IMG/VR virus record: IMGVR_UViG_3300028840_004168
Span: 1-64,000 of that record
Length of the DNA stretch: 64,000 nt
Strand: one strand, 5' to 3'
Origin: a virus
The notes under the pieces are model-generated. The model saw nothing but the letters and a program-made list of their open reading frames with translations. It was not told where the DNA came from and ran no database searches. Each line of letters starts with the position of its first letter. The first letter of the stretch is position 1. Below are positions 548-59,293 of the stretch, in pieces. The position numbers and the translations under genes were made by a program.

Positions 548-561
548 TCTGAAATTACAGA
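548..561. repeat. dispersed palindrome TCTGnAATTnCAGA (exact, intergenic)
   Basis: TCTGAAATTACAGA directly after the TylF stop codon and upstream of a -35 box. Confidence 0.8.
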
Positions 562-1155
562 TTATTTTATGATAACTCCTTGATGGTTGAACGCCACTGG
601 AACATTGCTGCCTTTAAAATATTCATCGACTGCAATGCGTGCGCCCTCTGTCTTAGGAAAGAAATAGTCATCGCACACAACGATGCCGTTTGAAAACAAC
701 CTGGGATAAAAGAATTCAAGGCAGTCTTTTGTAGACTGGTATATGTCAACGTCAATGTGGACGAAAGAGAACGTTAGATCTCTGATGCTGTCAGCAGTCT
801 CAGGGAACCTACCTTTGTAGATCGTAGTGTTCTTATACTCATCAAGCATGGCTATTGTGTTCTCAGCGTTCGGAGTCTTAAGCATTCCTTTCCAGCAATA
901 GTTATCTTTCTCATTTGTTTCAGGCATCCCTTCAAAAGTATCGAACAAGTGTATATGGCAGCTTGGCGCAGCTTCAGCCAGCACCATCCCTGAACCACCT
1001 TTGAATACGCCTATCTCAGCTATGTTGCTTCCAGGAAATATCATGTTAGTTCGTAATGCCAATCGATAAATCACGAATAGATTAGCAGGCGGTATGATTG
1101 TATATGACTTAGCCCTGGCCTGCAGCTTTGCAAAATCTTTATCCTGTTTCCACAT
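562..1155 (-). CDS. TylF/MycF-family sugar O-methyltransferase
   Basis: AEIGVFKGGS, HLFDTFEGMP, FVHIDVDIYQST, GIVVCDDY motifs. Confidence 0.88.
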   Translation of the reverse strand: MWKQDKDFAKLQARAKSYTIIPPANLFVIYRLALRTNMIFPGSNIAEIGVFKGGSGMVLAEAAPSCHIHLFDTFEGMPETNEKDNYCWKGMLKTPNAENTIAMLDEYKNTTIYKGRFPETADSIRDLTFSFVHIDVDIYQSTKDCLEFFYPRLFSNGIVVCDDYFFPKTEGARIAVDEYFKGSNVPVAFNHQGVIIK

Positions 1156-1750
1156 GATCTCTCCATTTCTGTTGCTTTATTTTTTTGATTACGATCTCTA
1201 TAGAGAACTCTGCATAAGGATGTTCTTTAATGCCTAAATCGTAAACATGCCCTTCATCACACTTCTTGATATAGACAACGTCACACTCTTTTCTTGGCAG
1301 AGCATCTGCTATCTCTCCTGCAGATACTATATGAGGTTCAGGGTAAGATACCATAGAGAAGTAGAACTTATGACTGGGATTCCACCTTGACGGCAGGTCT
1401 TCTTTCCTTTCATACAGATCCATATGAGGCAGGTATAGCAGGAGATGACCGTCATACTTGATCTTGCGCCACCATTGTCTCAATGCATCGAAAGGATTTG
1501 GTATGTGCTCAAGGCAATGCGATGAATAGATATAGTCGCATGTCTGATCAGGGATGCTCTCTACATCTTTAAACCTGCATCTATGCTTATCAGGCATTTT
1601 ATCAATACACTCGCAGCCAGCAACAAGCAGAGGATCACCACCTGCGCCAATATCGATACCATAGCCATTAGTATATAAATCAAAGAATCCCTCTCTTTTT
1701 CTTCTTTCCACAGCACTTGATGTGCCGCCTTTCCTGCGTGCATTATTCAT
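1139..1750 (-). CDS. class I SAM-dependent methyltransferase (type 11-like)
   Basis: GIDIGAG motif I, DYIYSSHCLEH, WWRKIKYDGHLLLYLP. Confidence 0.85.
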   Translation of the reverse strand: MNNARRKGGTSSAVERRKREGFFDLYTNGYGIDIGAGGDPLLVAGCECIDKMPDKHRCRFKDVESIPDQTCDYIYSSHCLEHIPNPFDALRQWWRKIKYDGHLLLYLPHMDLYERKEDLPSRWNPSHKFYFSMVSYPEPHIVSAGEIADALPRKECDVVYIKKCDEGHVYDLGIKEHPYAEFSIEIVIKKIKQQKWRDHVETG

Positions 1751-2411: not shown

Positions 2412-2418
2412 GTCTACC

Positions 2419-2988: not shown

Positions 2989-3836
2989 TCACTCCTTAAA
3001 AAATTTTCTAAAATTTCATAATTTATTTTTGACTGTATTGTGTAATACATTTTTTTGTCTTCGTTTGGCTTAGGAGAAAAATCTACTCCGAGAAAAGGTT
3101 TGAGCCCTGGCATCGTGCCCTTCAACGTGTGGTCTATCAGGGCATCTATATCATGTCTGAAAGTCTTTCTATGCCTGTGCTCAGAGTTGTTGCCATAGAT
3201 AGCGACAAGCTTCTTAGGCGCAAAACCAGCAGTAGCAGCAAAATGCGTGATGCCAGTATCACCGCCCACATAGACATCGGCAGTCATAATCTCTCTGGTA
3301 GTATCGTCTATACTGCCACAGACGCTGCTGATAGCCTTTGCATTCTCTTCAGTGAAAGGTATTTCACTGACTACCCTCTTCTCTCCTACTACTACAACAT
3401 CATAGCCTGTATCTCTGAGAGCGCTTACGATCTTATTAACCAGCAATACGTTCCAGTTTCTATCTGCATTGTAAGGAGCATTCATCAACGGATTAACCAC
3501 AGCTTTCTTTTTGTCATACTGGTTTTTATATATATTTTTTATCTTGAGAGTTACCTGCATGATCCTGTGAATGAAATCCCACCAAGCCCAAACATTGCCA
3601 CCATAAGGCCAATCAGGGCCTGGAGTGTCTGTAACTCTCTCTGGAAAATATTTCATCAGGTATCTTGAATTGACATCTATCGGGCACTCTGACATGTTGA
3701 ACAGTATCTCTTTTCCGTAGTGCTGCCTCATAGCTTCATTGATAGCCATTACTGCGATCAGATCTCCCATCCTGACATGACCGAAGTTTCCTTTCGTTGT
3801 ATATATGTTGCTTTCAAGGTTGTCTAATCTAAACAT
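2985..3836 (-). CDS. glycosyltransferase family 9 (heptosyltransferase-like)
   Basis: RMGDLI N-terminal motif and ADVYVGGDTGITHFAA (DsG..HlA) C-terminal motif. Confidence 0.8.
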   Translation of the reverse strand: MFRLDNLESNIYTTKGNFGHVRMGDLIAVMAINEAMRQHYGKEILFNMSECPIDVNSRYLMKYFPERVTDTPGPDWPYGGNVWAWWDFIHRIMQVTLKIKNIYKNQYDKKKAVVNPLMNAPYNADRNWNVLLVNKIVSALRDTGYDVVVVGEKRVVSEIPFTEENAKAISSVCGSIDDTTREIMTADVYVGGDTGITHFAATAGFAPKKLVAIYGNNSEHRHRKTFRHDIDALIDHTLKGTMPGLKPFLGVDFSPKPNEDKKMYYTIQSKINYEILENFLRSE

Positions 3837-3839
3837 GTT

Positions 3840-4966: not shown

Positions 4967-5009
4967 TTCTCTGTACTGCCACGCTTGTTAGCAAAAGAGC
5001 TAACGATGG

Positions 5010-5582: not shown

Positions 5583-5588
5583 CCCCTC

Positions 5589-7430: not shown

Positions 7431-7444
7431 TCTGAAATTTCAGA
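7431..7444. repeat. dispersed palindrome TCTGnAATTnCAGA (perfect, intergenic)
   Basis: TCTGAAATTTCAGA directly after the AAA gene stop and upstream of a -35 box. Confidence 0.85.
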
Positions 7445-9049
7445 TCAAACATTTATGTTCCTTTTCTTTTTCTGGCCTTGCGACTTCTTCTCCATCGGAG
7501 TAGAAGCTGGCATTGCCCTTCCAGACAGCTTAGCCCTCATGGTATCTATCTGTGTCTTCATAGTCTTTGTCAGAGGGTTAATCTCTCTCAGCTCTGCTTC
7601 CAGATCCTTGTCAGCCAGCTTGCGTTTTCCATCGCTGAAAGACCTGAACAGCGCTCCATTGACTATTTCTTCGATCTCGCTGCCAGTCAGATCCTGAGCC
7701 ATGTTAGACAGCTTCTCAAGGTTATAGTTTTTAGGCTTGCGACCCCTTTTCTTCAGGTGGATCTCAAAGATCTCTTTACGCTCTTTGTGATTTGGAAGAT
7801 CGACATATACCAGATTGTCGAAACGCCCTCTGCGCAGGAACTCAGGCGGTAAGCTGTCGATGTTATTGCAGGTAGCAACTACAAAAACAAAAGACTTCTT
7901 TTCCTGCAGCCACGTGAGCAGCTTTCCGAAGACCCTTGCAGTAACACCGCTATCGGTATTGCCAGAGCTCTGCACCCCTGCCAGACCTTTTTCGATCTCA
8001 TCAACGAACAGGATACAGGGAGCCATAGCTTCGGCAGTAGCAATGATCTTGTTGACATTGGCCTCAGACTGGCCTACCAGAGAACCGAACACCTTGCCGA
8101 TGTCAAAGTATAACAAGGGCAGACCCCAGTTTACAGCGATGGCCTTACCCACCAGAGACTTACCACAGCCAGGGATACCCAGGAGCATGATGCCCTTCGG
8201 TATCGGGAGCCCATAATCTCTGGCCTCTTTGGTGAATGCGCTTTTGCGCAGCTCAAGCCAGCCTTTAAGTCTGTCAAGGCCGCCTACTTCATTCATGTTG
8301 GTTTCAGGATGGAAGACATCTATCAGCGTGCTCTTCTTCAGCTGCTTGCTCTTTTCTTCCTGAATAGTTTCAGGATCAAGATCGCCCTGCTTCTTGACGA
8401 TGCCTAAAGCATATGCGCCAGATATCTCCTGGGAAGTCATACCCTGAGCTGATCTTACCAATGCAGCTATCCTGTCTTCTTCGATCTCTTCCATATCAAG
8501 ATCGGCATCTTTAAGAGTATCTTCCAGACAGATCTTAACTTCTTCTTCTGTAGGAAGTGCAAACTCCATCCAGGCCACATCTTTTTCGATCTCGATAGGC
8601 AGCTCGATCTGTGCGCCAGTGATAATCAGGTTCTTGCTGACCTGTCTGAATTCAGCGCCCAGGTCTTTGATATACTGTTTTACCATAGGATGCTTCAAGT
8701 ATTCATGGAAGTTGAACATCACTATAATGCTCTTGTCTTCAAAGCTTCTGGTATAGGACAGTGCCTGAATAGCATCCAGTATAGGCCTGTCATTACCACC
8801 ATTTTCTCCAGTAGCTACCGCTACATCAGCATGGTCTTTAAACCCTTCAGTGCATGTCCACTTGTAGTATTTGACCTCTCTATCAGAGGCGTATACCTTA
8901 GCAGCAACGAGCTTGATAGCATCTTCCAGTCTATGATCTTCATATGACTGAATGGTTATTACGCCCATACTGGCATTGAAATGATCCCAAAGGCTTTGCT
9001 GGAATTCGGTAAGCTCAATTTTTTCAACATCAATTTTTTCTTCGTCCAT
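7445..9049 (-). CDS. Ycf46-like AAA+ ATPase
   Basis: Walker A GIPGCGKS, SLVGQSE pore loop, Walker B ILFVDEIEKG, sensor TCN, Arg finger FLRRGRFD, degenerate N-terminal AAA domain. Confidence 0.9.
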   Translation of the reverse strand: MDEEKIDVEKIELTEFQQSLWDHFNASMGVITIQSYEDHRLEDAIKLVAAKVYASDREVKYYKWTCTEGFKDHADVAVATGENGGNDRPILDAIQALSYTRSFEDKSIIVMFNFHEYLKHPMVKQYIKDLGAEFRQVSKNLIITGAQIELPIEIEKDVAWMEFALPTEEEVKICLEDTLKDADLDMEEIEEDRIAALVRSAQGMTSQEISGAYALGIVKKQGDLDPETIQEEKSKQLKKSTLIDVFHPETNMNEVGGLDRLKGWLELRKSAFTKEARDYGLPIPKGIMLLGIPGCGKSLVGKAIAVNWGLPLLYFDIGKVFGSLVGQSEANVNKIIATAEAMAPCILFVDEIEKGLAGVQSSGNTDSGVTARVFGKLLTWLQEKKSFVFVVATCNNIDSLPPEFLRRGRFDNLVYVDLPNHKERKEIFEIHLKKRGRKPKNYNLEKLSNMAQDLTGSEIEEIVNGALFRSFSDGKRKLADKDLEAELREINPLTKTMKTQIDTMRAKLSGRAMPASTPMEKKSQGQKKKRNINV

Positions 9050-9116: not shown

Positions 9117-9144
9117 CTATTTTTTTTATTTAATTACATTTTTT

Positions 9145-9586: not shown

Positions 9587-10135
9587 TTATTGCGAGACGA
9601 TCAATATAAACCTGAAGTAGCCGACAGGATGGATGAGATGGCTGTTCAGTATTTCGTCATGGATATATACCCTGGGAGTTTTGTAGTATGACTCTCCGAA
9701 CATCCTCTGCATGTGAGTTCTATATGTGGTCAGGTCATAGTTGAACTGGCGCTTGACTTCATCTTCGTCAGTAAGACCATGCTGTTCTTCGTAATTTATT
9801 TCAAACTTAACAATCCTGACAAACAATTCTTCGTCAGTAATCGCAGCCTTTAAATGAGCAAGCATATCTATGGGCTTACCAATGAGCTCTTGAGGGATGC
9901 TGTCTTTTACAGGCGGCCCATCCGATCTGATGGTAGTAAGGATGTTACCCCTGTATTTGCTTTCGATGTAGTCAGCTACAACATGTCTTATTATCCCCTC
10001 TATATTCTTGTGAATGCCGTCTGGCGGTCTTTGCTCTAGCAGCTTGATCGTTTCTTCAGTGAGTTCAACAGTCACATCGTATGTGACTTTTGTGTCATCG
10101 ACACGCAACTTCCCTTTCTTTTTTGGTTCGTCCAT
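9587..10135 (-). CDS. hypothetical protein, possible N-terminal ribbon-helix-helix-like DNA-binding region
   Basis: YDVTVELTEETIKLLE...IEGIIRHVVADYI strand-helix-helix pattern; AAGGAG SD. Confidence 0.55.
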   Translation of the reverse strand: MDEPKKKGKLRVDDTKVTYDVTVELTEETIKLLEQRPPDGIHKNIEGIIRHVVADYIESKYRGNILTTIRSDGPPVKDSIPQELIGKPIDMLAHLKAAITDEELFVRIVKFEINYEEQHGLTDEDEVKRQFNYDLTTYRTHMQRMFGESYYKTPRVYIHDEILNSHLIHPVGYFRFILIVSQ

Positions 10136-10340: not shown

Positions 10341-10628
10341 CTATATATCTTCTATAAGCCACGCATAGATAGGAGTCTTCTCGCCCATGTATGCGCCGCC
10401 TATATTAAAGTCAAAGAACTCCAGCGCTTCTTCTCTGGTCATGCCGTCTCTTTTCATCAGCACTTCCACTATTTTGCCGATGCTGTAGATGACAAGGTCG
10501 TTTCCCATTACGGTTGTTACTCCAACGATTGCGTCATCCAGCCCATCGGCGACAAGCAGATTTTCATACTGCTCGGAAAGTTTTTCTTGAATTTCAGATT
10601 TTTTATTCTGATTTTTTATCTCCGACAT
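10341..10628 (-). CDS. conserved phage hypothetical protein
   Basis: ADGLDDAIVG...YS..KIVEVLM..DGMT.EEA.EFFDFNI.GAYMGEKTP pattern recognised from phage ORFs. Confidence 0.75.
   Translation of the reverse strand: MSEIKNQNKKSEIQEKLSEQYENLLVADGLDDAIVGVTTVMGNDLVIYSIGKIVEVLMKRDGMTREEALEFFDFNIGGAYMGEKTPIYAWLIEDI
10585..10598. repeat. dispersed palindrome, one mismatch
   Basis: TCTTGAATTTCAGA, codes SEIQE. Confidence 0.6.
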
Positions 10629-11079
10629 TTTCCAAGTCCTTCTCGATCTCGATAAGTTTTATTTGCTCAAGCATGAATTGCTTCTTATCTTCAAGCTCTT
10701 TTTCTTTTTTCTTTATCAGCATATCAAGCTCTCGTATCATCTCTTTCATAAAGTCAGTGCAGGCATCCCCTCTGGCCTCACACCTGTCTTCCAGCTTCCA
10801 TTTGCGCTCTGTAGCGGCTGCTATTTCGTCCTGTATTATTTTATGTTCAAGCTTGTAATCAAAGACAACAGTATTCTTATAAAGCTGCTGCCTGACATCC
10901 TGGATATTCTTCTGCGCCTTCTGGTCTACTTTTTTGACATCATCTGCTTTGGCAAAATAAGCATTAAATCCCAAGACAATGCTAACAAAAGCAGCCATAG
11001 TCATAATAGAGGCTATTATAACTTTTATGTTAGTGATAAATTTAAGCACTCCATTCTTCTTGTCATTATCATTTGCCAT
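10603..11079 (-). CDS. membrane-anchored coiled-coil protein
   Basis: Hydrophobic IIASIMTMAAFVSIVLGF followed by charged heptads. Confidence 0.7.
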   Translation of the reverse strand: MANDNDKKNGVLKFITNIKVIIASIMTMAAFVSIVLGFNAYFAKADDVKKVDQKAQKNIQDVRQQLYKNTVVFDYKLEHKIIQDEIAAATERKWKLEDRCEARGDACTDFMKEMIRELDMLIKKKEKELEDKKQFMLEQIKLIEIEKDLENVGDKKSE

Positions 11080-11314
11080 CCTGTTTCTCCTTCAATACTT
11101 TTTCTTTGTCTATCCATCCCCACTTGTCTCTGTTGATCGTAAAAGCAAGCGTCATATCTTTACAGATTTTAGACTTTTCACAATACCTGCAAACTATCTG
11201 GTAAGGATGGTAGTGCATCCCGAATTTGTCGCATAAAGAATCTACTGGAAAATAATCTGCAAACAAATCTTTCCAGTCTTCAAGCCTCATTCTCTTTGCA
11301 GCTTCGGTTATCAT
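11069..11314 (-). CDS. small Cys-motif protein
   Basis: CDKFG...CRYC..SKIC motif. Confidence 0.65.
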   Translation of the reverse strand: MITEAAKRMRLEDWKDLFADYFPVDSLCDKFGMHYHPYQIVCRYCEKSKICKDMTLAFTINRDKWGWIDKEKVLKEKQDGK

Positions 11315-13218
11315 TTTCTTTTCTCCATCCTGCTGATGCCGCCTTCCTTAACAACAAACAGCACGTTGTCAAAATTCTTCTTGAGTTCTACCCTATGGCT
11401 GACAAGCAATACCTTGCTCTTCAGCCTTTGGAAGTAACCCATGAAAGCTTTAATGCCAGCAGCGTCCAGAGATTCAAAAGCGCTTTCGTCTTCGATGCTG
11501 AAATCTATGTTCCTGGATTGCATGACTTGATGCTCGATAGCGCTGTCCATTGCAAACTCTACAGCCGCAAGCTCTCTGCCGCTAAGCACGTTCAGCGGCT
11601 TAGGTTGATTGGCCTTATCGAATATGCTGAATTCGATTTCGCCAGATCTTTTGTCTGTTACGCTTATTTCAACTCTTATCTCATCGTCTATCTCTTCAAG
11701 CGTTTCGTTGACGGCGATGTTGATCTCAGGTATCACTTCTTCCAGCAGCATCTTCTTGACATTGTCCCTGCCAAACCGCATAGACATGAAGTCATAATAC
11801 CTGATGTCGTTTCTCAGAGATTTAACCCTGTAGGTTGCTTCCTTGATCTGTTGTTTTATAGATTCAATTTGTTCTGCCGTATTGGTTAATGATTTTTCGT
11901 AAGCCTCTATTTTCTCTCTGGCAGCGCTGATCGTAGATGTGCGTGAAGCTATATCTTCCTTTACACCGCCAGTGGCTTCTCTTGCCAGTTCTATTTTGCT
12001 CTTGATAGACTTCTGTTTCTCAGAGAGCTTTTTCATCGTAGCATCTCTTTTATCTTTCACTTCCTGTATCTTTGCCGTCAATGCTTTATGGTCAGCATCG
12101 GTATTTGCAAGATTGGCTGTATCTGATTCAACCTTTTTCCTTGCTTCTTTTAAAATTTTGAAAAGGTCTTTTCTGATAACGTCTTTATGTTTTTCTCCTA
12201 CATCCTGTTTGCATGTAGGGCAGTTTTCTATTTTTGTTATGACTTGTATCTGGTGCTCTATCCTGTTTATTTCTCTTTTGCTGTCCTCTATTTTGCTGTT
12301 AATCATAGTCTTGGAAGCATCAAGCTTGCCTTCTTCTTTGTTCATGCTTTGCAATTTCTCTGAGCACTCTCTTTCAATGTCAGCTTTTTTTATTGCAATT
12401 TCATTATTTTCTTTTACAAGTTTAGACTCATCGCCATGCTTCTTCTTGCTTTTAGCCAGTTTGATTTTCAGATTTTTAATTTCTGCATCTTGCCGTTTGA
12501 TCTTCTCTTTCTCACCAGCTATAACATCGTCATAGTCAGCACTTTCTTTTTCGAAGTGTTCTTGGCTGCGCCCCAGGTCTTCTAGCTTGCTTTCCAGCCT
12601 GCTCCTTTCAGCAGCCATGCTATTGAGCTCTCCGTCTATGTATTTCTTTGCATCGTCTATCCATCCCCAATTCATGATAAACAGAAGGAAGTCCTGGCGC
12701 TCGGCATTACCCATGTGCAGGAACCGCTTGTTAGCTTTCTTTGTAAACCTCTCGTAGTGAGACTGATGATGGAAGACAGTCTTAAGCATCTGGTCTTTAG
12801 TGAATCCTAGAAGATCAACTATCTCTTTGTTTACATCAGAAGGGCGCATCTGTTTTGTAATACAGCTTCGCTTGGCTCCATCGTATTTGTAGATATGAAC
12901 TTCGTTCTTGAATTCAGAATGCTTCCTATGGCGCACGATAGCATACTTGTTGCCGTCTGCGTGCATAAACTGAAGCTCTCCCCTGCATCCTTTTTCAAAA
13001 ACTCCCAGGATAGAATCTCCTGTAATGTTGTTAGGAGTTTCGCCAAAAGGTATCCACAGAAAACAAGACAGGAAGTTACTCTTGCCTGCTTTATTGGCTA
13101 TGCAGTCATCTTCGTCTCTGTTGTCACCAGTTATGAAATAAACTCCGTTGTCTGTTAGATCTACTTCTGCATGTTCAAAAGTTATATACTTATCCAGTAT
13201 TACTTTAGTTGGGTTCAT
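11311..13218 (-). CDS. sbcC: SbcC/Rad50/gp46-like recombination ATPase
   Basis: Walker A NKAGKS, coiled coil with CPTC zinc hook, LSGRE signature, IEDE Walker B, VSH. Confidence 0.92.
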   Translation of the reverse strand: MNPTKVILDKYITFEHAEVDLTDNGVYFITGDNRDEDDCIANKAGKSNFLSCFLWIPFGETPNNITGDSILGVFEKGCRGELQFMHADGNKYAIVRHRKHSEFKNEVHIYKYDGAKRSCITKQMRPSDVNKEIVDLLGFTKDQMLKTVFHHQSHYERFTKKANKRFLHMGNAERQDFLLFIMNWGWIDDAKKYIDGELNSMAAERSRLESKLEDLGRSQEHFEKESADYDDVIAGEKEKIKRQDAEIKNLKIKLAKSKKKHGDESKLVKENNEIAIKKADIERECSEKLQSMNKEEGKLDASKTMINSKIEDSKREINRIEHQIQVITKIENCPTCKQDVGEKHKDVIRKDLFKILKEARKKVESDTANLANTDADHKALTAKIQEVKDKRDATMKKLSEKQKSIKSKIELAREATGGVKEDIASRTSTISAAREKIEAYEKSLTNTAEQIESIKQQIKEATYRVKSLRNDIRYYDFMSMRFGRDNVKKMLLEEVIPEINIAVNETLEEIDDEIRVEISVTDKRSGEIEFSIFDKANQPKPLNVLSGRELAAVEFAMDSAIEHQVMQSRNIDFSIEDESAFESLDAAGIKAFMGYFQRLKSKVLLVSHRVELKKNFDNVLFVVKEGGISRMEKRK

Positions 13219-15339: not shown

Positions 15340-15611
15340 TTCCCTTCTTTTTCTTTCATCTCTGCTTCGCCTTCTTTAAGCGCTTCTTTGACAGTCTTGC
15401 CCCATTTAATAGGCTTACCCTGTCCATCACGCAATCCGATGGTTGCAGCAGCGATCATTATTATTTCCACCAGCGTTCCTACATCTATCTGTCCACCTGT
15501 GTAGGCACTGACGGCTGCGACCACTCCAAAAAGAGCAGCCAATATTGATTTTGATTTCCAAGCAGATTTTATTTCCTGCTTTGTAGCTAAATGATATTCT
15601 TTTTCAGTCAT
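15336..15611 (-). CDS. small holin-like membrane protein
   Basis: AWKSKSILAALFGVV...IIMIAAATIGLR...PIKW; two hydrophobic segments and a charged C-terminus. Confidence 0.55.
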   Translation of the reverse strand: MTEKEYHLATKQEIKSAWKSKSILAALFGVVAAVSAYTGGQIDVGTLVEIIMIAAATIGLRDGQGKPIKWGKTVKEALKEGEAEMKEKEGK

Positions 15612-16753
15612 GATATCTCTCCTAATATCTTTCTTCCAATATCTCTCAATTTAGTTTTCTTCAGTGTTGTATCATCTGTGTTGATGATATGTTCCATTAG
15701 TTCTTTCCTGTTGTCCGAATTTTTTGATAGGAGAGGTTTTTTATTATTGGTTTCTTCTTTGAGCTTGTATGTCGCTTTCGTGTTAACAAAATCTTTTATT
15801 TTTTCTGAAATTTCAGATTTTATTTTTAAAGTAACGTTCGTAACTTTCAGCCTTGCTGTATGCCGAGTATATTTTTTTAAAATGCCCCTGATGTCATCCA
15901 GGTTCTGATTAAAGTCACGAGTATGGTCATAATTAAAATCGATGTCTTTAAATTTTGTAAAGCTGTTAAGGTCTAAGGACTCCCAGGTATCAGCCAGATT
16001 GCCTTCTTCGCTAGTCCTTACCCTTACCGCACGCTTGATCTCATCAAGGTCGTTGAAGTCTTTCATATATGGATTCCCAGGTATAATAATATTCCCAAGA
16101 CCTGCCACATTATCGTAATAGTGATGACAGTGACCAATAGCGATAAGATCATATGTGCCAGAAAGAATACGTAAATCTTTTTGAGAAAGACCGCTATCAA
16201 AGATTTCCCTTTTATCATGCCTGATTCCTTTCACTGGCGCATGCATGATGCACACAGTCTTGAGATCGAACAGCTTAGTGCCGTCTGTATCTTCAAGTTC
16301 TTTGTCTGGTTCAATAGCTTCTGTCTCTGAACCATATGGATAAAAGAAATATGCTGTGTCTGTAGATCTGTCTACTACTACTGTGGGATTTAAGATAGGA
16401 ACGAAGTAATCTGGCCTGAAGACTTCATACTGGCTGAGAATATTATAGTCCTGAGAATACATTTCATGGTTGCCAAGCATAGCGAAGATGCGAAGAGCTG
16501 TGCCGTGTTTATCTCTCAATCTTTTCATCAGCCTTGCAAACCTGCTGGCAGTCTCTGAGTCCAAAAAGTTGTTTTCAAATACATCGCCAGCTACTATGAT
16601 AGCACCCCAATCATCTTCCTCTGTGGAATACTCTGCTATCTCTTCTATAGCCGCTTCAGCATTGTCTATGCCATTATAAGGGAGGCTGGCATCCAAGTGC
16701 CAGTCAGCGGTTATTATTGGATCTCCTAAGTCCCAACGCATTTTAATCATCAA
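15608..16753 (-). CDS. sbcD: SbcD/Mre11/gp47-like nuclease
   Basis: ADWHL, AGDVFE, GNHE, MHAPV, IGHCH phosphoesterase motifs; near the Rad50-like gene. Confidence 0.88.
   Translation of the reverse strand: MMIKMRWDLGDPIITADWHLDASLPYNGIDNAEAAIEEIAEYSTEEDDWGAIIVAGDVFENNFLDSETASRFARLMKRLRDKHGTALRIFAMLGNHEMYSQDYNILSQYEVFRPDYFVPILNPTVVVDRSTDTAYFFYPYGSETEAIEPDKELEDTDGTKLFDLKTVCIMHAPVKGIRHDKREIFDSGLSQKDLRILSGTYDLIAIGHCHHYYDNVAGLGNIIIPGNPYMKDFNDLDEIKRAVRVRTSEEGNLADTWESLDLNSFTKFKDIDFNYDHTRDFNQNLDDIRGILKKYTRHTARLKVTNVTLKIKSEISEKIKDFVNTKATYKLKEETNNKKPLLSKNSDNRKELMEHIINTDDTTLKKTKLRDIGRKILGEIS
15804..15817. repeat. dispersed palindrome (perfect, inside sbcD)
   Basis: TCTGAAATTTCAGA in an AT-rich island, codes SEISE. 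Confidence 0.8.
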
Positions 16754-16773: not shown

Positions 16774-16802
16774 AGCATATCAAGCTTTTTATTTATTGTC
16801 AA
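16774..16802 (-). promoter_or_regulatory. sigma70-type promoter
   Basis: TTGACA-N17-TATGCT with A-rich UP element. Confidence 0.65.
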
Positions 16803-16965
16803 CTATTTTTTTATCTTCTTTTATTAATTTTACTAGTTCTACTACGGCCCAGTCAAGCGCCTGTTCTCTTGTGTGCAGTTCAGATACTTTATTGCGCATA
16901 ACTTTAGCGTTCCATTTGGTTTCAGAGTCATAGTAGATAAAACAAATGTCTTTATCGTAACTCAT
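16789..16965 (-). CDS. small hypothetical protein (58 aa, below track cutoff)
   Basis: Manual translation MSYDKDICFIYYDSETKWNAK...EQALDWAVVEL...; AGGGAG SD. Confidence 0.6.
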   Translation of the reverse strand: MSYDKDICFIYYDSETKWNAKVMRNKVSELHTREQALDWAVVELVKLIKEDKKIVDNK

Positions 16966-17009: not shown

Positions 17010-17023
17010 TCTGAAATTTCATA
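17010..17023. repeat. dispersed palindrome, one mismatch (intergenic)
   Basis: TCTGAAATTTCATA. Confidence 0.65.
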
Positions 17024-18350: not shown

Positions 18351-18506
18351 CTATTCTCCTAAATATTCTTTTACATATTTATCTAACTCTTTATCCGCTT
18401 CCTCTTTAGTTTCAAACGGCCCATGCCTGTCTGCCCAGGTTTCATCCCAAAAATACCACTTGCCATCTTCTTGATGCACTATGTCTTTGGCTTTTTTATT
18501 CTTCAT
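18351..18506 (-). CDS. small phage protein (WYFWDETW..GPF motif)
   Basis: Start revised to ATG 18506 (MKNKKAKDIVHQEDGKWYFWDETW). Confidence 0.65.
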   Translation of the reverse strand: MKNKKAKDIVHQEDGKWYFWDETWADRHGPFETKEEADKELDKYVKEYLGE

Positions 18507-19737
18507 CCATGATCTCCTGCAGCTTTGTTTTGGCTTTGTAATTATCCTGGAAGTAACGGACAAACTTGTGCTGGCCTTCAGGGTCAAGCTTCTCAAACTC
18601 TCTGCCTAACTTGTCAAACATTTTATATTTGAACTCAATATCATCTATGGCTATCTCTGCTTCGCCAGTAGCTGCCACCAATCCGCTTTTCCGAACAAGC
18701 TTGTCAAGGTCATAAATAAAGTTATATCCCTCATTGAATAGTATTTTATACTCAACCATCTTGATATCAGGCTGTCTGCCTTTGAGCTCCCTGACTTCTA
18801 TTTCGCCTTTAAGCCCTACCCTTACGCCGTTATCCTCTATCCACTCTTTGCGCTTGATGTAGAGCAGCACAGTAGTAGCAAAAGACACAGCATCTTTGGT
18901 CAGAAATGTGTTGCTTCCATAGCCAATAGTGCTTGTCTTCTGTGCTACCAGAAACAGCATAGCCCCTGTTTCTACTACATCATCGTAGATCTCACGAAAC
19001 AATTCTCTCATGGCTTTGCTGTGACTCCCTGGCTGTGCTGCTTTTACAGTGCTTTCGCTGGCCTCTGCATCGTCATACTTAGGATCTCCTTTGGTAGTCT
19101 TCTTCTTAGTCATCCTTTTGACTTCAGCCTCACTTGTAGTTGCAGATATGCTGTCCCATATGATTACCACAGGGAAGTAACCATACTTGTTTCTCAGCTC
19201 TCTTATTTTTTTAAACATAGCAAACAGGCGCACGCCTATTTCTTCGATGGTTAAGCGTCTGCCTTTTTCAAACATCTCTTTGCTTGGCTGCATCATGATA
19301 AAATTTTCTGAAATTACAGATTGGGAAATGCCATATCTGCCATAGAGCTTTTGCACATACTCATCAGTCAACGTCCGTTCCTGGTCTATGTAGATCACGA
19401 TGCCTTCTTTCAAGAGGATTGATTTTGCCACTTCCAAAGCAAATGTAGTCTTGCCAACTTTAGCAGGGCCGAAGATTGTAACAGCCCTGCCCATCGGCAA
19501 TCCGTAATCTCCTGTCGTAACTGATTTGACCACAGCCCTTTCCAGGTGTGGCAGTCCGATCTGCAGCACTTCTTTGATGTTTGACTTAAGCTCTATAGGC
19601 GCAACCGCCGTCCCTTCTCCGAACAGCTTATTAGCAAAGACACTAAGAGTGCTGCCTACTTTTTTCTGAGCTTTTGGAACTGATTTTTTCTTGCCAGAAT
19701 TATTTGTAATGGCCTTCTTTGCTGCTTTCTTAACCAT
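18496..19737 (-). CDS. recA: RecA/UvsX-like recombinase
   Basis: GLPMGRAVTIFGPAKVGKTT Walker A, YIDQERTL, IIWDSISA Walker B. Confidence 0.88.
   Translation of the reverse strand: MVKKAAKKAITNNSGKKKSVPKAQKKVGSTLSVFANKLFGEGTAVAPIELKSNIKEVLQIGLPHLERAVVKSVTTGDYGLPMGRAVTIFGPAKVGKTTFALEVAKSILLKEGIVIYIDQERTLTDEYVQKLYGRYGISQSVISENFIMMQPSKEMFEKGRRLTIEEIGVRLFAMFKKIRELRNKYGYFPVVIIWDSISATTSEAEVKRMTKKKTTKGDPKYDDAEASESTVKAAQPGSHSKAMRELFREIYDDVVETGAMLFLVAQKTSTIGYGSNTFLTKDAVSFATTVLLYIKRKEWIEDNGVRVGLKGEIEVRELKGRQPDIKMVEYKILFNEGYNFIYDLDKLVRKSGLVAATGEAEIAIDDIEFKYKMFDKLGREFEKLDPEGQHKFVRYFQDNYKAKTKLQEIMDEE
19307..19320. repeat. dispersed palindrome (exact, inside recA)
   Basis: TCTGAAATTACAGA, codes SVISE. Confidence 0.8.
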
Positions 19738-21378: not shown

Positions 21379-21963
21379 TCAATCTGTATCTATCTTCTCT
21401 TCTATCCTGTTCTTGCGTTTGTGAAGGTATCCATCAGTTCTGTCTGTGTCTACCCTTGATTCCAACGCTCTGAACTTGATAGAAAGAGCATTGATAGAAG
21501 TCTTTAACTTTTTATAGATCGTATCCGCAGCGGATATATCAGACTTCTTTTTAGCGTAAAGCGGATCAGCTTTAATAGTATTTGAAATTGCAGTTTCTGT
21601 CAACTTTTCTTTTGCGTCTTTCTTTTCCTGGTAATAGCGGTTAGCCCACCAGCTTTCAAAATCGATTTCAAGGCTGTCTCTTAACGCCCTGAACTCTTCA
21701 CGCAAAATACCAATGTTGTACATCTCCGTTGATATTTCGTCAAGCATGTCTAAGACATTATGACTGCGAAGCAGTAATGCCAGAGGCTTTACAACTATCT
21801 CATGTTCGTCCATAACAACAGCTATAGTGCCAAGTTCTTTCATCTTGGCTTCTATGGCTGCATCTGTAAGCCTCTTCTGACTGACAGTTTCATGGATAGA
21901 GATTACTGATTCGCTGCTAGGAGATGATTTTTTAGAACTTTTTTTCTGAGCTGTCTTCGCCAT
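21379..21963 (-). CDS. UvsY-like recombination mediator
   Basis: Y.QEKK...LTETAI..TIKADP.Y...helical pattern; located between HU and SSB/RecA. Confidence 0.6.
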   Translation of the reverse strand: MAKTAQKKSSKKSSPSSESVISIHETVSQKRLTDAAIEAKMKELGTIAVVMDEHEIVVKPLALLLRSHNVLDMLDEISTEMYNIGILREEFRALRDSLEIDFESWWANRYYQEKKDAKEKLTETAISNTIKADPLYAKKKSDISAADTIYKKLKTSINALSIKFRALESRVDTDRTDGYLHKRKNRIEEKIDTD

Positions 21964-21973: not shown

Positions 21974-22384
21974 CTATTCATCATCAGGATAAAGATGTGG
22001 GTTGAGCTGCCGCATGAGCTTCTTAGACATCTTGTAGACTATCTTAGTTCTTTCAGCAACTGTGATTTCTTCACCAGTTCTAGGATTCCTGCCAGGATAA
22101 GCATCTCTGGTATACACATGGAACTTGCCAATGTATGAAGAAAGAGAAACGTCTTCGCCTCTCATCAGATGATCACCAAAAGCAATGTCAAAAAACTTAT
22201 TGATTATGTTTTTAACATCTACGTTTGAGATATCATAGCCGTCTGCTCTCATAGCAGCAGCTACTTCCTTCTGAAGATCTTCATAATAGACATGCAGTTT
22301 GCGTGGTTCATTCTTCTTACTGGTTTTCTTTTTGGTTGTTTTCTTTTTAGCTACCGTCTTTTTAGCAGCTGCTTTCTTAGCCAT
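21974..22384 (-). CDS. HU/IHF-family DNA-binding protein with Lys-rich N-tail
   Basis: GEDVSL...GKF....R....GRNPRTGEEITV.....VYK.SKKL. Confidence 0.92.
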   Translation of the reverse strand: MAKKAAAKKTVAKKKTTKKKTSKKNEPRKLHVYYEDLQKEVAAAMRADGYDISNVDVKNIINKFFDIAFGDHLMRGEDVSLSSYIGKFHVYTRDAYPGRNPRTGEEITVAERTKIVYKMSKKLMRQLNPHLYPDDE

Positions 22385-22388: not shown

Positions 22389-25300
22389 TTACCCCCTATG
22401 TAGGATATTAAGCTTGCATTCAGGTTCTAAAATGAAAGACTTAGTGCCATTCCTCATGTTTCCTTTAGCACATATTAAAATTACATCGCCTTTCTTTGGT
22501 TTCTTACTTTTGTCTTTTTGAATCTCTTTCCAAAAGTCATTGAATGCAACGACACTCGCATCAGCGCCTTTATCTCTGATAGTAATGAATGCCATCCGTC
22601 CTTTTTTTGAAACATGTTCTTTAAATCCAACAACTTTTCCGAGTAAATTGTATTCGTTACCTATAAACACTGTATCCATTTTAGCAAAGTCATGCGTTTT
22701 GTCAACAAAATTTTGATACACTCCATCAAAAAGCTCGGTATAGTTGATCATATCTACACCTAACACTTCTGACCGCCTCATAACCAAGTCTATTTCATCA
22801 CTTGCAGTTAAATCTTCTGGAAGCAGTTCTCTGCGTTCGTTATAGTAAAGAGCTAATTGTTCTTTTATTGACAGATCGGTTATGTCAGCAAAGCAGCCGC
22901 CGATAATCATGTTAGTAGCAGCTGTTTTGTTTGCCATCTTTTTATTTTCTGTAATTACAGAAACAAAATACTCAAAGCTATCGAACGGCAACATGTTCAT
23001 AATATTGCCATAGACAGAATCGCCTACGCCTTTTATCATATTTAAAGGCATAACTATTCTGTTACCATCAAGCATAAACCTGTCCCTGCTGGCATTAATA
23101 GATGGATATACCAGATCTACATCAAACCTGCTTACCTCTCTGATCACTTCATGCAGCTTAGATTTCTCTGTATAGTTAAGCCATGCTGTAAAAAACTCTA
23201 AAGAGTAGTATACCTTTAAATACATGCACACTACGGCATACAGGCTGTAGGCAGTAGCATGCGCCTTTGGAAAATTATACCTGCCGTGTTCTGCTATCAG
23301 CTTCCAGATCTCATTTGCTATATATCTAATAGTATCTTTATTTTCATCAGTCCATTTGGCTACAGCCCCTTTTACAAAGTCATCTTTAAAAGCCATGAAC
23401 TCTTCACGCTTCTTGCCTTTCTGCAGCTTGCGAAGTCTGTCTGCATCCACAGAAGGAAGTCCAGCAAAGTCAGTAACAAGGTGCATCATGTGTTCACTGT
23501 ATATAGGCACTCCAAACGTTTCTTTCAAAATAGCTTCAACAGATGGATGCAGGTATTCTACTTTAGCCTCTCCTTTTTTTCGTGCCAGGAAAAGCTTATG
23601 AGCACCAGACTGCAGAGGCCCAGGCCTGTTTAATGCATTCACAGCTATAATCTGTTCGAAGGTTTCAGGTTCAAGCTGCTTGAGGAACTTTGTTACATTA
23701 GGCCCCTTGAACTGAAACACGCCGCCTGTGTTGCCGAATCCAAACTGTTCTATGACACGCTTATCATTGACATCTATATTTCCTATATTCACATCTTCAT
23801 CATGCCTCTCACGTATAGAATCAAATGCCTCTTTAAATATAGACATAGTCTTGACTCCCAGGATATCAAGAGTCATAATGCCGCATGCATTAAGGAACTC
23901 TCCACCAGTATGACTATTCTCTGTTTCAGTAACTATGCCGCCTTCTTTAGACTTCATTACAGACAGGTAATCAGAATATTTTTCTGGCGTAATGATCAGT
24001 CCAGCGGCATGGACGCTCTTTGATTTAACAACTCCGATAACAGGCTTGACATACTTGAGATACCATTTATAGTTCTCATATCCATTACTGGCAAGCCAGT
24101 TTTTACCGAAGTCATCAAGGCCGAGATCGAATATGTTAGAAATGAAATCAGACTGCTGAATAAATATATCTTTGGTCAGTTTATTTATCAGCTGGAATTG
24201 AAAGCGATTCATCTCAATCTTATCGTCTTCCAGTTCAGCCATTTTATATCTTACGCTGGCAAGGCTTTTTAATGCCTGCTTAATCTGCAAACGCTGGTAT
24301 GCGCCTACCCTGCACACTCTTTCTTCACCATATTTCTCAGACATATATTCAAATATTTCATCTCTCCTATCACTCTCAACATCTATGTCTATATCAATAT
24401 CGTTCTCTCCAGATTCAATCCTGGCAGGGCTTATAAATCTGTCAAAAGATATTTTATGTTTAACAGGATCAAACAATATAAAATCCAGAAGGTATGCTAC
24501 CAGTGAGCCACCGACAGAACCTCTACAATGAGCCAGTATATCGTTGACATAGCAAAACTCAAACAGATCATCTACAATCAGGAAATAGTCTATCGCATCA
24601 AGCTGCACAATGGTTTCAAACTCATACTCCAGGCGCTCAACATACTTGCTGTATTCTTTGTCTAGCATCTTTTCTTTATCTGCCAGTTCTTTTAAGCGAT
24701 CATTCAGCAACAAGTAGAAAAGCTGATTCTTTTTGTTATGGCTGGCACAAGGCGGCATCTTGCTAGGGCGCACAGTGTTCCAGTTTATATGTTTAAAGTA
24801 GTAATGCTTCCTGATATTGTAATCAGGTATTTTGAAATCTCCCAAAGGCATCTCATAATCACACTTACTGACCACATCGTCCACATTGTCTATCGCTTCT
24901 CTGATTTCGCTTCTGAACCTGGAATAAGTTTGAGGGCAGTTCTTTTTGAATCCAATAATCATGCCATGCTTGTTCTTATAGTAGATGTCATCATTGTTGT
25001 ATTCAAAATTGATATTGCTTATCTTGATAAAGTCCTTGTGCATCTGCTGCTGGCGCTTGTAGAGGAAATGAACGTCATTAGTAGCGACAACGCCTATGCT
25101 TTCCTTCTTGGCATAAGAAAACAAAGCATAGTTTAACTCATCGTATACGCCTTCATAATCCAGAGGCATTACTTCAAAATAAAAATCTTTGCTAAATGCT
25201 TTTTTAAACTGATCTATTCTCCCCTTTATTTCTTTTGAAATTACATAATTATTTTTTCTAATAATGGAAGGAATGTAGCCGCCCATGCAGGCAGTCATAC

Positions 25301-35717: not shown

Positions 35718-35877
35718 GATAATTCATTATAAGTTTGTTTAATATTTTGGTTATGCTTGTGCCGTTTCCTATTGCATTTAACTTAAGTTCATTTTTGATA
35801 TCTGTAGGCAAAAAGAACCCTACATAGCTTTTGTTATCTATATCCACAGCAACTCTTCCCTTGTTAAATTTTCCCAA
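35638..35877 (-). CDS. ribbon-helix-helix (CopG/Arc-like) DNA-binding protein
   Basis: SYVGFFLPTDIKNELKLNAIGNGTSITKILNKLIMNYL; first gene after a promoter. Confidence 0.75.
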   Translation of the reverse strand: MGKFNKGRVAVDIDNKSYVGFFLPTDIKNELKLNAIGNGTSITKILNKLIMNYLERDGRKHDEKEKTTKKEGNSKSARP

Positions 35878-35895
35878 TTTTGCCAGCTAGATTTA

Positions 35896-35924
35896 ACCGT
35901 AACAAAAGAAAAAATCATTGTCAA
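35896..35924 (-). promoter_or_regulatory. sigma70-type promoter at the virion/replication module boundary
   Basis: TTGACA-N17-TACGGT with an AT-rich upstream tract. Confidence 0.55.
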
Positions 35925-35968
35925 GCTAATTTTTAAATTTTTAAAAAAAAGCTTGGAAAGCTGTATTA

Positions 35969-48703: not shown

Positions 48704-49876
48704 CTATTTCGCTCTCTCTACAAAGATCATGACATCATTCAAAGCGTTAAAGTTAAGAGTGTAAGTTATCACATAGCCGTCTCTTACAGGAGTGAAGGGC
48801 TCAAGGGTAGCTCTCCTGGCGCATACTATGACCTTGTCATTGCTGGAGGCACATTCAGCCACCATAACAAAATTAAATATGTCACCATCCAGGTAGCTCT
48901 GGTAGTCGCTCCTGTTATAAAATCTTATATCCACAGATCCAGCCACAGTCCTGCTTTTTAAAGAGTAAGCCATAGCTTCATCATCGCCAGGAAAATAATC
49001 TGGTCTTAGATCATTTATTATATCGATGTCAAATCCTGATGCTTCCGCTACTTGCAGCCCTTTGTATAGCCGCAGCGTCAGAGGATCTATTAAAGAAGGA
49101 TAGTGAGGATCGACAGTATAAGCGCCAACTGCTGATGTAGAATCAACTGCCTCTCTAGCAGCTATAAGGCCTGCAGACAGGCCAGCAATAGTATCAACAC
49201 TAAAGGTAAAGCTCAGCGCATTAACCTTGACACCGTTGTATAGGTAATAATCTATATCCCTCTGAGACTGCATACAGAGGCTCACAGGGAGATTGAAATG
49301 AACATCAGTATAGTAATTAGGGACGATGGCATACACATCACTGGCAGTTGAATCTACCAGCCCAAAGAACGCTTCTTCAGCAAAGTATCTCTTCGCATAT
49401 GTTGATTGCTCGCCTCTAGTCACTGTAAAGGTATAGTTGGGCGGCGGAGATCCATGCTTGTTTGCACTGACCAAGTCAAGCACTTCGCCCCCAACGAGAA
49501 AAGTATCCACGCCATCAAAGCCATCAGGGTCAAGTGTATTAACTTCGAAGTCCGTAGCAGTGCTGTCGGTAACGTCTTGATTGAGTGTGCCATAAATAAA
49601 CCCCTTACTTCCAAATAAACTTTTGTCAGTAAATTCGATCTTTCTACCAATGGCGGCTGTCATTACATCTATAATAGAAAGATCAGCCGATAGATCGACA
49701 TTGAGAGGCCCACTGCCAATGTAGTTAGTCTTCGCTAACTCACCATAGTTAATAAAGTTAAGCACATTGTAATCGTTTAAAGTAGAAACCACTCCCTCAG
49801 ATACCAAAGGGAAATATTTATCTGGAATTCCAGATTTAAAACTTGACTCTGTGCCTATGTATACAAACGATGCCAT
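48704..49876 (-). CDS. second tail-tube paralog (tube initiator or minor tube)
   Basis: IGTESSF...FPLVSE, YNGVKVNALSFTF, GFDIDIINDL, RTVAGSVDIRF parallel the major tube motifs. Confidence 0.7.
   Translation of the reverse strand: MASFVYIGTESSFKSGIPDKYFPLVSEGVVSTLNDYNVLNFINYGELAKTNYIGSGPLNVDLSADLSIIDVMTAAIGRKIEFTDKSLFGSKGFIYGTLNQDVTDSTATDFEVNTLDPDGFDGVDTFLVGGEVLDLVSANKHGSPPPNYTFTVTRGEQSTYAKRYFAEEAFFGLVDSTASDVYAIVPNYYTDVHFNLPVSLCMQSQRDIDYYLYNGVKVNALSFTFSVDTIAGLSAGLIAAREAVDSTSAVGAYTVDPHYPSLIDPLTLRLYKGLQVAEASGFDIDIINDLRPDYFPGDDEAMAYSLKSRTVAGSVDIRFYNRSDYQSYLDGDIFNFVMVAECASSNDKVIVCARRATLEPFTPVRDGYVITYTLNFNALNDVMIFVERAK
49821..49834. repeat. dispersed palindrome (perfect)
   Basis: TCTGGAATTCCAGA, codes SGIPD. 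Confidence 0.8.
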
Positions 49877-58420: not shown

Positions 58421-58423
58421 AAG

Positions 58424-59293
58424 CTATCTCCTGGGAGATCTCGAAGAGCTTTTAAACTTGCCCTTGCTTGAGTTTTTATGATCATCCTTGTTCTGCTGCT
58501 GTTTATCCAACTCAGCTCTGGTAGCAGATTCTTCACTTAAGACTGTCTGCCTGATCTCATATGCAATGTTCGTCTGATCAAGGATGCCGCCGCTATTAAA
58601 AAGAACGTTGCTGTTATTTGCCCAGTATACCAGCGATACGGCGTTCTCTACATCATCAGATACAATTGACAATGGACATGTGCTAAACTTCTTAGATCCG
58701 ATAGCTAACACATCACTACCAAAATTATCTTCATCAGGTTTGCTATCGGACTTCTTAACTAAATGATACTTGCTTACCTTCTTTTTTTCAACTCTTTTTA
58801 TTTCTGAAATTTCAGATTTTTCTTCCTCATCCATCTCAACTTTATCAAGACCGAACCTCTGGCAATTACGCCTGCCGTTCAAATGCTGCTTCAGACAGTC
58901 ATCGCAATTCCAGGTGTTGTTCTTGTTATATTCCATGAACACATGCATCCTCACCAGCCCTTTGATATCATTTCTTATATCTTTGGCAATAGAGGAATTA
59001 TCAAATATAAAGTTATATATTTCTTCTAAGTATTTCTTCGGTATCATGCCTAAGTTATCAACACTATAAGGCACTTCATTGTCGGACTCATCTTTGAAAT
59101 TAGACCAGCCGACTATATTACTAGCCAGTATCTTGAGCATAATATCATTCATCCCTGGCCTCTCACGATCAAGCTGCAGCCGCTGTCCTACTGTCAGAAA
59201 CTGAACATAAAAAACTGTCTGCTCCTGTTCGGGCTTGTCTTTGTCATCCTCTACAATAAAAGGACAGATATAGTTAGCATCTAAGCAAATCAT
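58424..59293 (-). CDS. tail assembly chaperone, gpG-like domain fused to a gpT-like domain
   Basis: N-half parallels 59374-59730 (IVGWSNFKDE); C-half has CDDC..NC, CP and GGILDQ.N motifs; directly before the tape measure gene. Confidence 0.7.
   Translation of the reverse strand: MICLDANYICPFIVEDDKDKPEQEQTVFYVQFLTVGQRLQLDRERPGMNDIMLKILASNIVGWSNFKDESDNEVPYSVDNLGMIPKKYLEEIYNFIFDNSSIAKDIRNDIKGLVRMHVFMEYNKNNTWNCDDCLKQHLNGRRNCQRFGLDKVEMDEEEKSEISEIKRVEKKKVSKYHLVKKSDSKPDEDNFGSDVLAIGSKKFSTCPLSIVSDDVENAVSLVYWANNSNVLFNSGGILDQTNIAYEIRQTVLSEESATRAELDKQQQNKDDHKNSSKGKFKSSSRSPRR
58803..58816. repeat. dispersed palindrome (perfect)
   Basis: TCTGAAATTTCAGA, codes SEISE. Confidence 0.8.

Follow-up and report, generated by a model that had tools for sequence, protein, structure and literature searches.

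A 14-bp palindrome, TCTGNAATTNCAGA, recurs through the genome of an uncultivated tailed phage, from a lineage known from metagenomes alone, that is represented by the IMG/VR virus record IMGVR_UViG_3300028840_004168 (one contig of 129,910 bp, 40.9% GC). The first 64,000 nucleotides of this record are the stretch on which the analysis was centred and are referred to here as the window. The recurrence of the palindrome has been confirmed as real and far above chance, and its surroundings suggest that it forms the core of a putative protein-binding element of about 30 bp, which probably, though by no means certainly, serves as an operator of the phage transcription programme and would most likely be bound at all its copies by one phage regulator. 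Genes in this genome run on the minus strand from position 1 to about 83 kb, followed by blocks of small genes of early type at 84-128 kb, and the lifestyle of the phage appears to be virulent.

Within the window, TCTGNAATTNCAGA occurs in eight exact copies compared with 0.02 expected from dinucleotide shuffles, and twelve matches with at most one mismatch compare with 0.46. An earlier reading of the window (the original prediction) had listed eight exact and four one-mismatch copies, and all of them were recovered at their positions. Over the whole genome, 15 exact, 8 one-mismatch and 19 two-mismatch copies have been counted, against 0.05, 1.0 and 10.2 in third-order Markov controls, while the relaxed core TGnAATTnCA is found 33 times against an expectation of 2.9. 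In an unbiased count of the palindromes of the genome, the one with this core ranks first. The excess also holds in the codon-preserving shuffles that had been proposed with the original prediction: nine exact copies in coding sequence exceed the 0.14 obtained when synonymous codons are shuffled with each protein kept, as well as the 0.02 obtained by codon permutation.

The anatomy of the element was derived from an alignment of 35 copies in gene sense, two of which (95164 and 95240) have no A/T flanks and were dropped from later counts, leaving 33. All 35 have T3, G4, A6, A7, T8, T9 and A12, and 33 have C11; positions 1, 2, 13 and 14 of the palindrome are more variable. The copies had been described as sitting in short A/T-rich islands, and the eight bases on either side are indeed 83-100% A/T, with the exception of one upstream position at 74%. 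Because this conservation spans eight bases on both sides, the full element is about 30 bp long and consists of eight A/T-rich bases, TCTGnAATTnCAGA and eight further A/T-rich bases. The centres of its three A/T tracts (the left flank, the central AATT and the right flank) are about 11 bp apart, and TCTG and CAGA sit between these tracts, separated by one helical turn. The dyad of the core is perfect, and only the flanks, which are mostly A-runs on the sense strand, track the direction of the gene, with T-runs at 27193, 30193, 102844 and 109400. Since these exceptions occur, the flank requirement looks like one for A/T richness rather than for a given strand, and within genes A-runs (Lys, Glu and Asn codons) are probably tolerated more easily than T-runs (Phe). 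The frame S-x-I-x-(E/D/K), previously noticed in the copies inside genes, was seen in every intragenic copy checked. In most of these copies a stop interrupts the two alternative frames, TGA within the core or TAA within a flank; where none does, L-K-F-Q would be encoded. As the other frames are mostly closed by stops, no shared peptide is needed to explain the single reading frame.

The placement of the copies ties the element to promoters. In a promoter scan, 35 sites matched TTGACA-(16-18)-TATAAT/TATACT at 11 or all 12 of its positions. Seven of the 33 core copies lie within 4-16 nt upstream of a -35 box (the actual distances being 6-12 nt), compared with 0.10 expected by random placement. 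These seven copies serve eight promoters, the copy at 105139 being common to the divergent promoters at 105129 (minus strand) and 105164 (plus strand). Degenerate copies occupy the same position at the promoters 9116, 98437 and 108133, and a separate promoter-prediction scan recovers 7421, 9116 and 533. Within the window, the exact intergenic copies at 548-561 and 7431-7444 adjoin the stop codons of the open reading frames (ORFs) 562-1155 and 7445-9049 and lie 14 and 9 nt upstream of -35 boxes, as had been noticed before; the promoters are TTGACT-16-TAAAAT (533 to 506, minus strand, extended TG) and TTGACA-17-TATACT (7421 to 7393, minus strand). The degenerate copy at 9127-9140, which reads AATGTAATTAAATA in gene sense, is found 10 nt upstream of a promoter with all 12 positions matched (9116 to 9089). 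The element stands upstream of about eleven to a dozen early promoters of host type (TTGACA-17-TATACT) in all. Its dyad centre falls near -50, its gap to the -35 box is 6-14 nt and varies by up to 8 bp, and no copy overlaps a -35 or -10 box. At the stand-alone copies, no -35 or -10 box at a fixed distance and no enriched hexamer or second motif were found within 90 nt on either side, and an alternative promoter class at these copies was rejected on those grounds.

No close kin of the phage has been found in the phage collection or in IMG/VR, where queries with DnaE, the terminase and the SbcD-like protein gave at most 29-34% identity or nothing. One DnaE homolog, 49% identical, is located on a 62-kb metagenomic contig, of which 16.9 kb (L055, 37% GC) form a syntenic replication module. 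A metagenome scan for the motif together with an A-tract and TTGACA returned eight matches, among which the sole relative is L066 (14.2 kb, 37% GC), from the same sample series as L055; with homologs of five early genes at 50-60% identity (tblastx), L066 corresponds to the early region of the relative. All cross-phage comparisons rest on this one related phage, about 31 kb in the two segments. In L066 there are six core copies against 0.45 expected. At four of them a TTGACA or TTGACT box comes 8-10 nt further downstream, on the contig strand as given, and precedes a TATACT-like -10 box. Upstream of the copies at 4934 and 5875, at a distance of 11 nt, the opposite strand carries a TTGACA box, and 5875 is apparently flanked by a divergent pair; the sixth copy (3117) has no adjoining -35 box. 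The outer positions are looser in L066, with TNTG...CANA compared with TCTG...CAGA here, and the core has been kept though the surrounding cassette sequence has diverged. Comparison of the two phages establishes the element as an upstream feature of a subset of the predicted early promoters of host type, conserved across about 50% protein divergence, and as one that, judging from its placement, works in either orientation.

Other searches for kin or for further occurrences gave little. A more distant DnaE relative (32% identity, L072/L073) has no motif enrichment, and a scan of IMG/VR for the motif with a promoter gave 50 single matches with a second copy in none, which were taken as chance. 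A literature search for the literal motif returned coincidental strings alone. A 215-aa early protein (genome 105,492-106,139), tried as a query for finding kin, was useless for this purpose, as it belongs to a very large family across many bacteria: it matches no Pfam family and has more than 2,000 homologs of about 50% identity in diverse metagenomes and bacterial genomes, including Rhodobacteraceae.

The intragenic copies have a different history. The replication module of the relative (L055) contains one core copy, with 0.5 expected, compared with eleven in that of the present phage. Pairwise alignments of DnaE, the primase, the loader and the glycosyltransferase run without gaps through the intragenic copies, which lie in variable segments, and the orthologs carry neither the motif nor the peptide. 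An origin of the copies by insertion or from a mobile element was rejected given the gapless alignment. As the promoter-upstream placement is the only one conserved in the relative, it is presumably the primary form of the element. The alignments indicate that the intragenic copies are a lineage-specific expansion by amino-acid-changing substitutions, and their origin by such substitutions in variable segments argues for selection acting on the DNA. About 20 further stand-alone copies thereby appear to have been written into variable segments of early and replication genes, with the late structural region depleted.

In the window, exact copies within genes are found at 15804-15817 in a Metallophos/SbcD-like gene (15608-16753), where the encoded peptide is KIKSEISEKIK, at 19307-19320 in a RecA-like gene (18496-19737), at 22948-22961 at residue 1025 of DnaE, opposite a variable segment of the relative's DnaE, and at 30193-30206 in an AAA loader gene (29826-30683). 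Two more lie at 49821-49834, 55 nt into a tail-tube-like gene (48704-49876) directly downstream of the 2846-aa tape-measure gene, and at 58803-58816 in ORF 58424-59293, upstream of the tape-measure gene. One-mismatch copies are located at 27193-27206 in a Toprim primase gene (27051-28106) and at 33615-33628 in a glycosyltransferase-intein gene (32993-35236); these two and the loader copy are missing from the orthologs of the relative. Another, at 10585-10598, falls at the junction of the overlapping ORFs 10603-11079 and 10341-10628 and is read in the frame S-E-I-Q-E. The gene labels given earlier to the copies at 15804, 19307, 22948, 27193, 30193 and 49821 (SbcD-like, RecA-like, DnaE, primase, loader and tail tube) proved roughly correct. 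The remaining one-mismatch copy (17010-17023) is intergenic, 45 nt upstream of a small gene (16789-16965). Two-mismatch copies with the core intact occur at 25234-25247 (DnaE residue 263, not in the relative) and, as a weak member, at 21581-21594 in ORF 21379-21963. Probable weak members are the two-mismatch copy at 3007-3020 (TATGAAATTTTAGA in gene sense), which has A/T flanks and a start codon 19 nt on, at 2988, and the core-only copy TGAAATTGCA at 12392-12405, within ORF 11311-13218 and with A-rich flanks. A core-only copy between ORFs 63111-63773 and 63847-65118 (63834-63847) is a further weak member.

Along the genome, the copies number 0.32 per kb in the first 9.5 kb and 0.43 per kb from there to 35.3 kb, the extent of the replication module. 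The early blocks past 84 kb have 0.26-0.38 per kb, and the structural and packaging region (35-84 kb) has only 0.10. The claim that the palindrome marks the early and replication region is therefore right as a description. In the replication module the 11 copies are spaced more evenly than at random (coefficient of variation 0.32, P ~3e-4), and the copies with at most one mismatch behave alike when taken alone (0.37, P ~0.01). The even spacing vanishes genome-wide and the region was picked after inspection of the data; because of this post hoc choice, it is suggestive only.

The early promoter cassettes that carry the element have several other features in common. In the early region their order is a terminator, a pair of GGTTTGAC boxes, a tract of short repeats specific to the cassette, the palindrome, an A-tract, TTGACA and TATACT. 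The box, written GTCAAACC on the plus strand and GGTTTGAC in gene sense, has 17 genome copies, all on the plus strand, 15 of which lie in genome 97,036-102,973. The boxes are mostly paired, 14-29 bp apart, upstream of early promoter cassettes and between the preceding terminator and the palindrome, and TCAAACC boxes are also present in L066, around 3066 and 5054; the GGTTTGAC box may be a second conserved protein-binding element or a decoy -35 element. Six early promoters (102,803 and 105,094 on the minus strand, 105,197, 106,743, 108,166 and 109,460) are followed by (T)TAGGATGA right after the -10 box and before the ribosome-binding site. Further cassettes share CATGATACGGGA or ACATAAGGAAGGGAGC, and the leaders fall into paralogous families on the basis of these three sequences. 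The -10 box TATACT is often contained in a 10-bp palindrome, AAGTATACTT, the second most frequent palindrome of the genome, with eight copies at window 7,392 and 9,506 and genome 95,492, 96,933, 100,905, 106,730, 110,402 and 111,405. Within about 40 nt of the promoter 533 to 506 there is a 17-pair hairpin with a T-run (465 to 428) and no ORF in window 428-533, so that its product looks like a short non-coding transcript upstream of the promoter at 300, which matches at 12 of 12 positions. Elsewhere, two direct-repeat copies of about 45 bp with TCTGGAATTCCAAC and no A/T flanks occur at genome 95,120-95,300, each beside TATAAT/TATACT-like boxes; they are unlike the main element and maybe give small transcripts. 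In window 26,455-26,510 an 18-bp unit, GCAGGAGCTGCTTTTGCA (plus strand), is repeated in tandem 3-4 times within ORF 26231-27037.

Half-sites of 4 bp, arranged as a dyad at a distance of one turn and with an A/T-rich centre and flanks, are classically bound by a symmetric protein that touches consecutive major grooves and curves the DNA towards itself, as in the 14-bp operators of phage 434 and the sites of the ribbon-helix-helix tetramers Arc and CopG. Read as an operator, the element would be recognised by a symmetric phage-encoded oligomer whose contacts to TCTG and CAGA fall in adjacent major grooves, one turn apart, and which sits over the narrow minor grooves of AATT and the A/T flanks; a helix-turn-helix protein binding as a dimer, or a ribbon-helix-helix protein binding as a pair of dimers, might fit this description. 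Among the proteins identified, the Arc-like one at 35638-35847 would be the best candidate under this reading, with the IHF-like one at 21974-22384 as an alternative. Binding would modulate the early promoters, most likely by shut-off or insulation rather than by activation, because the core promoters match the consensus as they stand and the spacing keeps no fixed helical phase. Within genes, the bound protein would impede elongation through early and replication genes and spare the late genes, the stand-alone copies acting as roadblocks or additional binding sites that extend control to genes with no regulated promoter of their own.

Scans of about 110 proteins against Pfam or PHROGs, with about 80 further genes outside the scan, recovered only four helix-turn-helix regulators or other recognisable DNA-binding proteins. 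The first is an Arc-like ribbon-helix-helix protein of 69 aa (35638-35847, minus strand), whose gene opens the replication module and is preceded by a TTGACA promoter of its own. The protein matches four PHROG 'Arc-like repressor' families (E 1e-4 to 3e-3), has ribbon-helix-helix structural neighbours (TM 0.6-0.69) and gives weak PDB matches to SvtR, AvtR and Mnt. The second, beside DnaE, is a 136-aa protein of the IHF/HU family (21974-22384, minus strand; PF00216), whose best PDB matches are to IHF alpha (E 1e-8 to 1e-11) and which is present in the relative at 40% identity. Its first 28 or so residues form a Lys/Ala-rich tail resembling that of histone H1, most of which is missing from the relative's homolog, where the arm is non-canonical. 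The others are an HNH endonuclease (genome 104716-105075), which shares 54% identity with that of the relative, and an HTH_OrfB_IS605 fragment of 104 aa (genome 83,959-84,273) that has the N-terminal helix-turn-helix domain only (E 3e-14) and would be either a TnpB remnant or a domesticated helix-turn-helix protein. Of the three binders proposed in the original prediction, the ribbon-helix-helix protein has gained support for its Arc-like fold, and the 'HU' protein is of the HU/IHF family, though IHF-like, and has the basic tail; no link to the motif was found for either, and in the third (9587-10135) no DNA-binding domain was detected. PDB sequence searches with two early proteins gave no match. 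The binder may be another early phage protein beyond the named candidates, a guess that falls somewhat short of an even chance; the IHF-like protein is a weaker possibility, a host factor is rather unlikely, and the Arc-like protein is the least probable of these choices.

Several observations weigh against the operator reading or its parts. About half of the strong intergenic promoters, such as those at 300, 6308, 9534, 16802 and 28465, have no element, and the promoter cassettes are partly paralogous, so some of the promoter copies may be alike by descent. No candidate binder has been linked to the motif. The 140 nt ahead of the Arc-like gene, where its own promoter lies, are free of copies, and the gene is missing at the syntenic site of the relative and from the roughly 31 kb of the relative examined, which still has promoter copies. 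At that site only 18 nt separate a Cys-rich gene, homologous to 35969-36598, from the next gene, a homolog of 35187-35717 (169 aa here and 143 aa in the relative); compared with the related phage, the Arc-like gene and its TTGACA promoter (window 35,638-35,990) form an insertion of about 250 bp. The relative, which is without the Arc-like gene, is also without the intragenic copies, a correlation from a single case. The DNA-binding arms of the IHF-like protein differ strongly between the phages (GRNPRTGE here and IKIPTRPDE in the relative) though the motif is shared. A site at -50 with a spacing of 6-14 nt is no classical position for a repressor or an activator, and for this reason the direction of regulation is a guess.

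One of the closest parallels among known systems, though a loose one, is provided by the mycobacteriophages of the L5 type (cluster A), in which the immunity repressor recognises one short site recurring 20-35 times. Some of its copies, the operators, lie at early promoters, and others, the dispersed stoperators, at further places in transcription units, where they are thought to stop elongation (PMC9283540). The present phage likewise has more than 20 sites, including early promoters: 23 copies with at most one mismatch and 33 core copies, seven of which lie directly upstream of promoters of sigma-A type. The L5 sites are asymmetric 13-mers, bound by a monomer and dependent on orientation, whereas here the core is a perfect palindrome with A/T flanks; the non-promoter sites of L5 lie in short intergenic spaces of a temperate phage, whereas here they are mostly intragenic and in frame. 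In addition, the promoter copies stand upstream of the -35 box and not over the promoter, and no immunity repressor or lysogeny module was identified among the proteins scanned. The geometry, in which outer half-sites of 4 bp face each other across an A/T-rich centre at one helical turn, is shared with the operators of the phage 434 repressor and Cro and of Arc, Mnt and CopG, the 434 operator being ACAA-N6-TTGT. As in systems of the Arc/Mnt type, the phage encodes a ribbon-helix-helix protein of the 'Arc-like repressor' families, but such operators overlap the core promoter beside the regulator gene and number 2-6 per genome, whereas there are about 30 copies here, those at promoters end 6-14 nt upstream of the -35 box and none is found at the promoter of the Arc-like gene. 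SPO1 is comparable in being large, in having a host of Gram-positive type and early promoters with the sigma-A consensus, and in encoding its own protein of the HU/IHF family, TF1, as the present phage encodes that at 21974-22384. TF1 is reported to prefer sites in SPO1 DNA that include early-promoter regions and to inhibit early transcription in vitro. Its sites have no strict 14-bp palindrome and need hydroxymethyluracil DNA, and the arms of the IHF-like candidate here are not conserved with the motif.

The original prediction had spoken of a genome-organisation or operator system. The operator half has gained ground, from the seven of 33 copies at promoters and from the placement kept in L066, and an organiser of the MatP/Noc type is not favoured. 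A role in genome organisation would involve a phage protein of nucleoid type that bends, loops or compacts the early and replication half, with secondary effects on transcription; the IHF-like protein and its Lys/Ala-rich tail would be an example. Such a role is unlikely, although a DNA-bending protein and a footprint of IHF size would suit the 30-bp span, in which A/T tracts recur three times at distances of about 11 bp, the intragenic copies have no promoter or other motif close by, and both phages have an IHF-family gene. The even spacing of the 11 copies over 9.5-35.3 kb keeps an architectural role alive as a minority view, though it was chosen post hoc and is lost genome-wide. Against an organiser, the sole placement kept in the relative is upstream of promoters, the relative's replication module has a single core copy against 0.5 expected, and the arms of the IHF-like protein have diverged while the motif was kept. 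The palindrome is also centred on a base step, whereas the kinks of HU and IHF, 9 bp apart, would imply a centre on a base pair, judging from published structures. Dispersed palindromes of 12-16 bp, many of them intragenic and enriched in part of the replicon, are a feature that the element shares with MatP/matS, SlmA/SBS, Noc/NBS, RacA/ram and ParB/parS. Compared by eye, TCTGnAATTnCAGA is unlike the sites of matS, SBS, NBS, ram and parS, which we take to be GTGACRNYGTCAC, GTGAGTACTCAC, ATTTCCCGGGAAAT, TGACGCCGGCGTCA and TGTTNCACGTGAAACA, and no homolog of MatP, SlmA/TetR, Noc/ParB or RacA was found among the proteins scanned. Here the element is strongly tied to promoters, and the intragenic copies, on which the analogy to MatP, SlmA, Noc and RacA had leaned, are not conserved in the replication module of the relative; the analogy is therefore weak.

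A site for a host factor is about as improbable as an organiser. In this explanation a host protein present at injection, either a global regulator or the alpha subunit of RNA polymerase aided by intrinsic curvature, boosts or conditions the early promoters, and the intragenic copies trap or titrate it. Early promoters are active before any phage protein exists, the A-tract between the palindrome and the -35 box resembles a proximal UP subsite, and the element has been kept between two phages whose identified DNA-binding proteins are poorly conserved. Host-factor sites are also known from phi29, which carries those of the host proteins Spo0A and Spo0J. The core promoters are, however, already consensus, and UP elements need no specific G/C positions, whereas here three positions (T3, G4 and A12) never vary, C11 is kept in 33 of 35 cases, and some copies lie a long way from any promoter. 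A scan of 185,579 species genomes for the motif with an A-tract and TTGACA gave four isolated matches in unrelated taxa, and neither a host regulon nor a prophage. Known sites of Firmicute regulators (CodY, cre, the ARG box, Zur/Fur/PerR, PlcR, Spo0A, parS and ComK) were compared and none was adopted; some half-sites are similar, but the spacings differ.

A function unrelated to an operator, either as an RNA hairpin processing site in A-rich mRNA or as the nicking target of a phage nuclease such as the HNH endonuclease, is very improbable. The A-runs do track the sense strand, and the conserved HNH gene lies directly downstream of the divergent promoter pair that bears the motif. A stem of 4 bp with a 6-nt loop is nevertheless too weak for a stable structure, the copies upstream of divergent promoters are not transcribed from them, four copies have T-run flanks, and a palindromic target would be cut on both strands. 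Least credible is that the copies have no function and are leftovers of duplicated promoter cassettes, which are visibly paralogous in their leaders, spacers and upstream repeats, together with chance matches in A/T-rich coding sequence, since this would account neither for the nine exact intragenic copies that exceed both codon controls and are no insertions, nor for a core kept in the relative where the flanking cassette sequence diverged.

The reading of the element as a dispersed operator has several consequences. Dispersed phage operators are already known, and what is unusual here is evenly spread intragenic copies made at the cost of protein sequence. In its boldest form, a symmetric operator placed in no fewer than 15 coding sequences, one every 2-3 kb or so across the early and replication genes, would allow one small protein, which may be the Arc-like one, to gate elongation or DNA architecture over half of the genome while sparing the late genes; this is a speculative proposal that we hold to be unlikely. 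In that case the element would constitute a palindromic, intragenic counterpart of stoperators in an apparently virulent phage. If one protein does bind all copies, promoter operator and roadblock would form a compact and portable pair, and the system would be a clear example of DNA-level selection overriding coding constraints. For a lineage known only from metagenomes, the element offers a concrete handle in vitro, consisting of a probe and a few candidate proteins. How large virulent phages of Gram-positive-type hosts time their gene expression is understood from few models only (SPO1, phi29), and in the present phage the whole regulatory layout can be read from the sequence, in which one 30-bp element marks a defined subset of early promoters.

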